The notes under the pieces: generated by a model
The model's input: only the letters and a program-made list of their open reading frames with translations
What the model was told of the DNA's origin: nothing
Database searches by the model: none
Shown here: positions 43,623 to 44,870 of the stretch, piece after piece
How the letters are laid out: every line of letters begins with the position of its first letter
Numbering within the stretch: the stretch's first letter is position 1
Sequence record: PQ850593.1
Length of the DNA stretch: 64,000 bases
Source of the DNA: Escherichia phage AidaStucki_Bas93
Reading direction: 5' to 3' (one strand)
Made by a program: the position numbers and the translations under genes

Positions 43623-44870
43623 TTAGTTGTTTGTTTCTATGTCAAAAGAGAATCCACGACCCGCTTCATCGGCAAACCGAGCTGTATGGGTTTGAGGCTC
43701 TAATACTTCAGGGTTGTTAGCAATAAAGCGAGCGGCGAGATTATCTTCCACATCTTGACTAGAGGGCTGACGTGCGCTAACAGTTAAACCATTTGGTCGA
43801 CCATTAGAACGTCTAGACAACCACTGCTCAAATGAATCACTAGTAACACCAAGAGCCTCTTCAAAAGATGTTCTACGAGTAGGGCTTACTCTTCGTGACT
43901 CTTGTGCTCGACGCATTGCAGGGGCTACAAACACCCCTTCAATTGCATTATGTCGATTAGGTTCATCTTCCCGACCAAGGAGATCACCTCCTGCATTAGT
44001 TGTTAAGTTTGTCAACCCTTCAGACCAATACGCACGAATCTGGCTAGAGCCATAAATGCTTGACATTAACTGAATCTCTTCATAAGGTATATCAAAGAAT
44101 CGACTCATATCTCGGTTAACACAATACTGAGCACTTGTTGTATCCTCAATAAGAGCAACCTGACCCCGTTCGTTGACCAGATGACTAACCGGCTGAGGTG
44201 TGGGAAGGTGTCGAGTTTGGGCCATGTATTGATATGCAGCTGCTGGAGAGGAAAATCTCAACACTTGCGAGTTAGGCCACTTCTTGTGAACATACCTGAT
44301 TTCACGACTAGAAACAACCACTGGACAAGGGGCGGTCATAGCCAAGTATCCATGAGGGGTCATGAATAAGTTATCAAGAGTCATCGCACCACGGCACATC
44401 ATAGGAAAATTATCCAATACCTCTTCAATAGAAGTAGGATAATTAAACATGAATTGGATACGAACACCATTCCACTGAAACTCAATAATATCAGTGAATG
44501 TTAATTGAGAACCCCCAGCATATGATTCGTTCGTAGCTTCAACAAGAAGAGATGAATACTCAATATCTTGTGATTCAAGCCATTCCTTCACATTACTTTC
44601 AATCTCCCGTCCAAGCATTTGCCACTGCTCGGCTGGGATAAAGGTATTTCGAGTTCTTGGTGTTTGTCCTCTGACAATAAAGATATCAATGTCATGTGGA
44701 GCTATGTTATTAAGAACAGCATCACGAATAGCTCCACCAGTAATGATAGGGCAAATACCATCTGGAATCAAGTTGTTGTTAATCAACTGTTCAATGAAGT
44801 GACGACCAACAGTGATATCAGGTTGTTGAGCAACCTTATCTTCAATTCGGTTAATCGGGATAACAATCAT
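43623..44870 (-). CDS. nucleotidyltransferase (CCA-adding/poly(A) polymerase head-domain family)
   Basis: ITGGAIRDAVLNNIAPHDIDIFIV matches the GGxVRD...DxD head motif; start moved to MIVIPINR because the track start overlaps the upstream gene. Confidence 0.6.
   Translation of the reverse strand: MIVIPINRIEDKVAQQPDITVGRHFIEQLINNNLIPDGICPIITGGAIRDAVLNNIAPHDIDIFIVRGQTPRTRNTFIPAEQWQMLGREIESNVKEWLESQDIEYSSLLVEATNESYAGGSQLTFTDIIEFQWNGVRIQFMFNYPTSIEEVLDNFPMMCRGAMTLDNLFMTPHGYLAMTAPCPVVVSSREIRYVHKKWPNSQVLRFSSPAAAYQYMAQTRHLPTPQPVSHLVNERGQVALIEDTTSAQYCVNRDMSRFFDIPYEEIQLMSSIYGSSQIRAYWSEGLTNLTTNAGGDLLGREDEPNRHNAIEGVFVAPAMRRAQESRRVSPTRRTSFEEALGVTSDSFEQWLSRRSNGRPNGLTVSARQPSSQDVEDNLAARFIANNPEVLEPQTHTARFADEAGRGFSFDIETNN

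Follow-up and report, generated by a model that had tools for sequence, protein, structure and literature searches.

A putative accessory nucleotidyltransferase with a class II-like head in the replication module of a kuravirus

Class II tRNA nucleotidyltransferases and poly(A) polymerases, among them Cca and PcnB of E. coli and the enzymes in PDB entries 1miv, 3h37, 3aql and 4wby, carry in their catalytic head a motif A of the form GGxVRDxxLx(5-6)DxD with two catalytic aspartates. They further possess motif B (RRDxxxNA), which recognizes the ribose 2'-OH and the triphosphate, motif D (EDxxR), an amino-acid template that selects CTP or ATP, and helical neck, body and tail domains for binding of the tRNA or RNA primer. 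A stand-alone CCA-enzyme head domain protein of Streptococcus pneumoniae (PDB 2la3) is of class II type and head-only, like the phage protein described here. Small head-only nucleotidyltransferases (NTases) are also found in Autographiviridae as PHROG 1614 (about 165–250 aa; labeled nucleotidyltransferase or tRNA nucleotidyltransferase), with examples in phiKMV/LKD16 (gp16), gh-1/phiPSA2 (gp20) and phi80-18 (g27). Their genes neighbor helicase/ligase genes in LKD16 and TbilisiM32, a primase-helicase gene in phiPSA2, and PolA in phi80-18. Head-only, class-II-derived NTases recur in podovirus replication modules, in Kuravirus and in phiKMV-like, gh-1-like and Fri1-like phages, and presumably in KP34-like podoviruses as well.

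The window analyzed here is a stretch of 64,000 nucleotides from Escherichia phage AidaStucki_Bas93 (PQ850593.1), a Kuravirus (phiEco32-like) with about 98% DNA identity to Bas92, Bas94 and LAMP. The open reading frame on which the original prediction was based was borne out with its exact coordinates, on the minus strand and with 415 aa (Table 1). The gene itself is already known: it is annotated in every sequenced kuravirus, in GenBank for >90 phages, and was highlighted in the BASEL-2 paper (PMC11990801). Its family, the GenBank "nucleotidyltransferase" of Gordonclarkvirinae, is also represented in phiEco32, and its orthologues include SU10 gp74, Bas92_0055 (98% DNA identity) and the LAMP "nucleotidyltransferase domain-containing protein", with which it shares its N-terminal 217 aa at 100% identity. 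No functional study of the kuravirus NTase or of the PHROG 1614 family was found in the literature searched. The NTase ATG at 44870 lies one base past the stop codon (TAA) of the exonuclease-subunit gene that precedes it, as read from the junction sequence, and the stop codon occupies 43623–43625. Since M1 (start MI.IP...) is common to 28/28 aligned homologues, the true start is this ATG and not the upstream GTG at 44927. That the NTase is a real gene rather than a chance reading frame follows from three observations: the match to the PHROG 12715 profile (E = 1.3e-227, residues 1–374), purifying selection on the globular part (dN/dS 0.11–0.15 against SU10), and peptides of the SU10 orthologue gp74 detected by mass spectrometry (PMC4281155).

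Table 1. Coordinates of the NTase gene, its protein regions and the neighboring genes in the window.
Feature	Coordinates	Strand	Basis or remark
NTase CDS, 415 aa + stop	43623..44870	(-)	ORF and translation; PHROG 12715 match
Catalytic core, residues 1–230: class-II-like Pol-beta head and following helices	44181..44870	(-)	
Motif A ITGGAIRDAVLNNIAPHDIDIFIV, residues 43–66, NTP/metal-binding signature	44673..44744	(-)	Translation; invariant columns
Beta-hairpin TDIIEFQWNGVRIQFMFN, residues 126–143	44442..44495	(-)	Alignments; hhalign; model strands 125–133 and 136–146
Small helical region, residues 231–300	43971..44180	(-)	pLDDT 69–93; dN/dS 0.11
Arg/Ser-rich linker, residues 301–380, predicted disordered	43731..43970	(-)	pLDDT 23–37
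C-terminal peptide RFIANNPEVLEPQTHTARFADEAGRGFSFDIETNN, residues 381–415	43626..43730	(-)	Conserved in Kuravirus
PolA 3'-5' exonuclease subunit	44872..45426	(-)	PF01612, E 2.8e-9; phrog_38876/403
dCTP deaminase	43080..43613	(-)	PF22769, E 3.6e-34; 9 nt downstream of NTase stop
Primase/helicase	45420..47210	(-)	Upstream of exonuclease subunit

The head-domain motif of class II enzymes named in the original prediction is present as ITGGAIRDAVLNNIAPHDIDIFIV, a near-perfect match to the motif A signature, in which TGGAIRDAVLNNIAPHDID supplies GGxVRDxxLx(5-6)DxD with both catalytic aspartates. Seven of its residues (G45, G46, R49, D50, D60, D62 and F64) are invariant in the 28 homologues. A first AlphaFold model, built on a shallow alignment (A1), was poor (pLDDT 48), and the model used for the core was built from the 28-sequence alignment and covers residues 1–300. 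It has the alpha/beta core of the Pol-beta superfamily, with hG[GS]-x(9-13)-DxD on a strand-helix-strand unit. In the hairpin TDIIEFQWNGVRIQFMFN, position 127 is always acidic (D/E) and I128 and Q139 are invariant; Q139 aligns with the third catalytic Asp (DVD) of the PHROG 1614 NTases. The helices after the head carry a family motif, (R)[DE]xxYxx[KR]K, at residues 189–197. Conservation of D/E127, Q139, D/E190, Y193 and K197 across the family alignment points to a conserved pocket, and together with D60/D62 these are the residues of interest for mutation.

Beyond the core, conservation is narrower. Residues 231–300 are conserved among closer relatives only, and the linker evolves faster (dN/dS 0.43), varies in length and has in-frame indels between kuraviruses; the clade of the window phage, which includes Bas92, has a short-linker allele from which 41 aa of the SU10 protein are deleted. 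Conservation of the tail ends with the closer relatives, and the family has no common C-terminal motif. An aromatic C-terminal tip like that of T7 gp2.5/gp4 was considered for the whole family and rejected, as it occurs in some members with no consistent pattern. As a separate observation, the end of RFIANNPEVLEPQTHTARFADEAGRGFSFDIETNN is similar to VFAFDIESN, the Exo I strand of the neighboring exonuclease subunit, and a six-frame search of the window with the pattern F.FD[IMVL]E[ST]N gave no match besides these two.

Comparison with the class II families gave a kinship limited to the head. The Pfam profile PolyA_pol (PF01743) scored 16.6 bits against a cut-off of 23, over profile positions 3–75 of 126; close homologues scored 17.8–20.2 bits, and only 4 of 28 family members reached an E-value of 0.01. 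The family profile matched the CCA enzymes 6ibp/7otr at E = 0.005, and hhalign of the kuravirus family against E. coli Cca and PcnB aligned motif A as the only stretch. Motif B is replaced, by LDNFPMMCRG in this protein and by the consensus FPxxC in the family, and motif D gave no significant alignment. About 36 residues past the motif-B position lies the conserved helix (R)[DE]190-x-x-Y193-x-x-[KR]-K197, which might be a changed equivalent of EDxxR. No part of the protein aligns with the neck, body or tail domains, and a predicted disordered C-terminus stands in their place. The nearest folds in Foldseek were CCA- and A-adding enzymes and PAP I, with TM-scores of 0.35–0.41. NCBIfam returned no match, nor did PADLOC for the NTase, and a single-sequence phmmer search against the PDB gave noise in the disordered tail only. 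Most close homologues bear a precomputed PF26128 tag.

The link to class II runs through PHROG 1614. Its profile matches the window NTase partially (E = 7.5e-8), and hhalign joins the kuravirus family to four PHROG 1614 proteins over 105 columns (86% probability, E = 5e-6). The same four proteins align with E. coli Cca and PcnB (91%, E = 9e-7) across motif B, where FD[YF]x[LI]NQ falls on RRDLTINAL of Cca. As the direct alignment to Cca and PcnB is confined to motif A, the class II kinship is bridged solely through PHROG 1614. Both groups are head-only, class-II-like and part of T7-type replication modules. They differ in that the third Asp (DVD) and FD[YF]x[LI]NQ are retained in PHROG 1614, whose members have no long tail, whereas the kuravirus family (PHROG 12715; 280–480 aa) has Q139 and FPxxC. 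With both signature positions replaced, the window NTase is a distant relative of PHROG 1614 and not a member. Judged from these alignments, its catalytic head would descend from that of CCA-adding enzymes and poly(A) polymerases, and the protein appears to belong neither to the canonical CCA-adding enzymes nor to the poly(A) polymerases. Of the family membership originally proposed, head kinship and motif A therefore stand and full membership does not, with PolyA_pol below threshold and motif B replaced; profile search and structural modelling, the checks proposed with it, likewise gave a CCA/PAP-type head and no class II body. The kuravirus NTase cannot pass for a standard CCA-adding enzyme.

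The NTase family has few members, all within this phage lineage. When 1.84 billion proteins were scanned with the family HMM, 32 representatives were returned, none >482 aa, and wherever the contig was read the protein comes from a phage gene with the same synteny; neither a profile word-index search nor a search with LKD16 ORF16 widened the family. In the window, primase/helicase, PolA exonuclease subunit, NTase and dCTP deaminase form one minus-strand block, which confirmed the predicted position between a polymerase exonuclease-domain gene (PF01612) and dCTP deaminase (PF22769). The same order is found in Bas92, SU10, L003, L004, L007 and L010 and persists in contigs where the NTases share just about 22–35% identity; the dCTP deaminase is adjacent in every contig examined. 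Because synteny extends over the entire module within one phage lineage, adjacency is weak evidence of functional coupling.

We tentatively favor the reading that the protein is an active, template-independent accessory nucleotidyltransferase of the T7-type replication module, an offshoot of PHROG 1614 with a putative nucleic-acid 3'-OH as acceptor. Residues 1 to about 230 would form a Pol-beta-type catalytic module whose head comes from class II tRNA nucleotidyltransferases/poly(A) polymerases. Its intact motif A would bind one (d)NTP-Mg2+, and the nucleotide would be added to the 3'-OH of a nucleic-acid end arising in phage DNA metabolism. In place of the tRNA-binding body and tail domains, the protein's own tail would deliver it to its target, and the kuravirus NTase would be a diverged branch of the small head-only PHROG 1614 proteins, specific to its lineage. 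We infer catalytic activity, the type of acceptor and the targeting role of the tail; use of dNTPs is possible, the ribose-sensing RRD being lost. Retention of nucleotide and metal binding is argued by the invariance of motif A over 28 sequences that are only 22–37% identical. The conserved pocket positions, the bridge to PHROG 1614, the gene contexts of both families, the low dN/dS of the core and the MS detection of SU10 gp74 also favor this reading. Besides the weak value of adjacency and the limited conservation of the tail, two features speak against it. With Q139 at the position of the third Asp, a classical two-metal attack by a 3'-OH may be impaired, although the invariantly acidic D/E127 on the neighboring strand could substitute for it; and FPxxC stands where the relatives have the motif-B-like FD[YF]x[LI]NQ. 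The tail with its Exo-I-like end suggests a partner to look for.

The same two replacements, of the third carboxylate by an invariant Gln and of the motif-B-like residues of PHROG 1614, would also suit a nucleotide-binding but catalytically impaired regulator or scaffold of the phage replisome or of a nucleotide-metabolism complex. The long predicted disordered linker with its conserved terminal peptide is typical of tethers, the NTase start is coupled to the stop of the exonuclease subunit, and the C-terminal peptide resembles the Exo I strand of that subunit. We consider a pseudoenzyme unlikely, since the motif A aspartates, the GG loop and R49/D50 are invariant over deep divergence, as are D/E127, D/E190, Y193 and K197; such conservation fits an active site better than a relic, and a Gln can still ligate metal or position a nucleophile.

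An active enzyme could instead nucleotidylylate an acceptor other than a nucleic acid, either a host or phage protein (an AMPylation-type takeover or anti-defence function) or a small molecule. Pol-beta-fold NTases that have the hG[GS]...DxD signature alone, such as GlnE, MntA and DrrA, act on such acceptors, and the altered third position would suit a different nucleophile. Accessory positions of this kind in T7-like phages often house host-takeover genes, and anti-defence genes occur there as well. The resemblance to the GlnE, MntA and DrrA families is no higher than the general fold level, however, PADLOC and NCBIfam were empty, and every one of the nearest folds belongs to a polynucleotide 3'-end enzyme, which makes this alternative quite doubtful.

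GenBank notes, like the original prediction, suggest either a true repair enzyme for tRNA 3' ends that adds CCA (or CC or A) and would mend damage suffered during infection or from host defences, or a poly(A) polymerase that would tail RNAs. Apart from the near-perfect class II motif A and the closest folds, this proposal is favored by the larger relatives of the same lineage, of which L007 and L009 carry genes for an RtcB RNA ligase and a Macro-domain protein within a few kb on the downstream side of the NTase. Several tRNA genes are present in larger relatives (Privateer paper, PMC7881722), and CCA-adding enzymes are a recognized component of phage RNA-repair sets (PMC7824862). The proposal nevertheless remains unsupported for the kuravirus protein and is, in our estimate, very unlikely. 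The alignment stops at the head, with motif B replaced, EDxxR not recognizable and Q139 at the third Asp; the tRNA-holding body and tail domains are missing, with a predicted disordered tail in their place; and the TM-scores and the PolyA_pol score are low. None of the few homologues retrieved from 1.84 billion proteins is long, and the contigs read show phage synteny. Neither the window nor the E. coli kuraviruses encode RtcB, and the host already has Cca. The suggested link to a tRNA-like element at 59.5 kb also found no support: all kuraviruses have the NTase, also those in which the tRNA-Arg gene, the usual one in kuraviruses, encodes its own CCA, and the PHROG 1614 relatives in Autographiviridae lie in phage stretches whose annotation, as fetched, lists neither a tRNA nor an RNA ligase gene.

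Gordonclarkvirinae are unusually restriction-resistant without a known mechanism, and Humolli et al. (BASEL-2, PMC11990801), who described their strong RM resistance, suggested a covalent DNA modification by the NTase/dCTP deaminase pair as its cause. Site avoidance as an explanation is ruled out for EcoRI, EcoRV, EcoKI and EcoP1I, for which the window contains 12, 35, 9 and 93 sites, respectively. There is a slender chance that the re-purposed class II head, with its exchanged third carboxylate and motif B, acts on phage DNA or DNA ends with dNTPs or some other donor and so aids resistance to type I–III restriction; the addition would then be, for example, end- or nick-directed instead of a bulk base modification. 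In that case the head-only NTases of T7-type replication modules would constitute a replisome accessory activity that has so far gone unrecognized. A covalent DNA modification installed by the NTase and the dCTP deaminase, with which the resistance, the presence of sites and a loss of motif B compatible with dNTP use would agree, is highly improbable, as virion DNA of Kuravirus SR02 yields an EcoRV fragment pattern in vitro despite its copy of the gene, P0016 (PMC11997193). Palindrome avoidance in the window is strong (CCWGG 6 versus 84 expected; 14 six-base palindromes absent), which indicates that unprotected DNA has long been exposed to restriction, and because the phage also encodes ThyX and thioredoxin, the dCTP deaminase fits ordinary dTTP supply. 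To our knowledge, no DNA hypermodification pathway employs a class-II-type NTase, and the phiKMV- and gh-1-like phages, hosts of NTase relatives, are not known to us for modified DNA.

With respect to transcription, no phi32_gp36-type promoter was found directly upstream of the NTase. Exact TAATGTATA sites on the minus strand occur solely downstream of it, at 38831 and 33320, and a one-mismatch site is located at 42837, past the dCTP deaminase, indicating that the NTase is transcribed from further upstream along with the primase/helicase.

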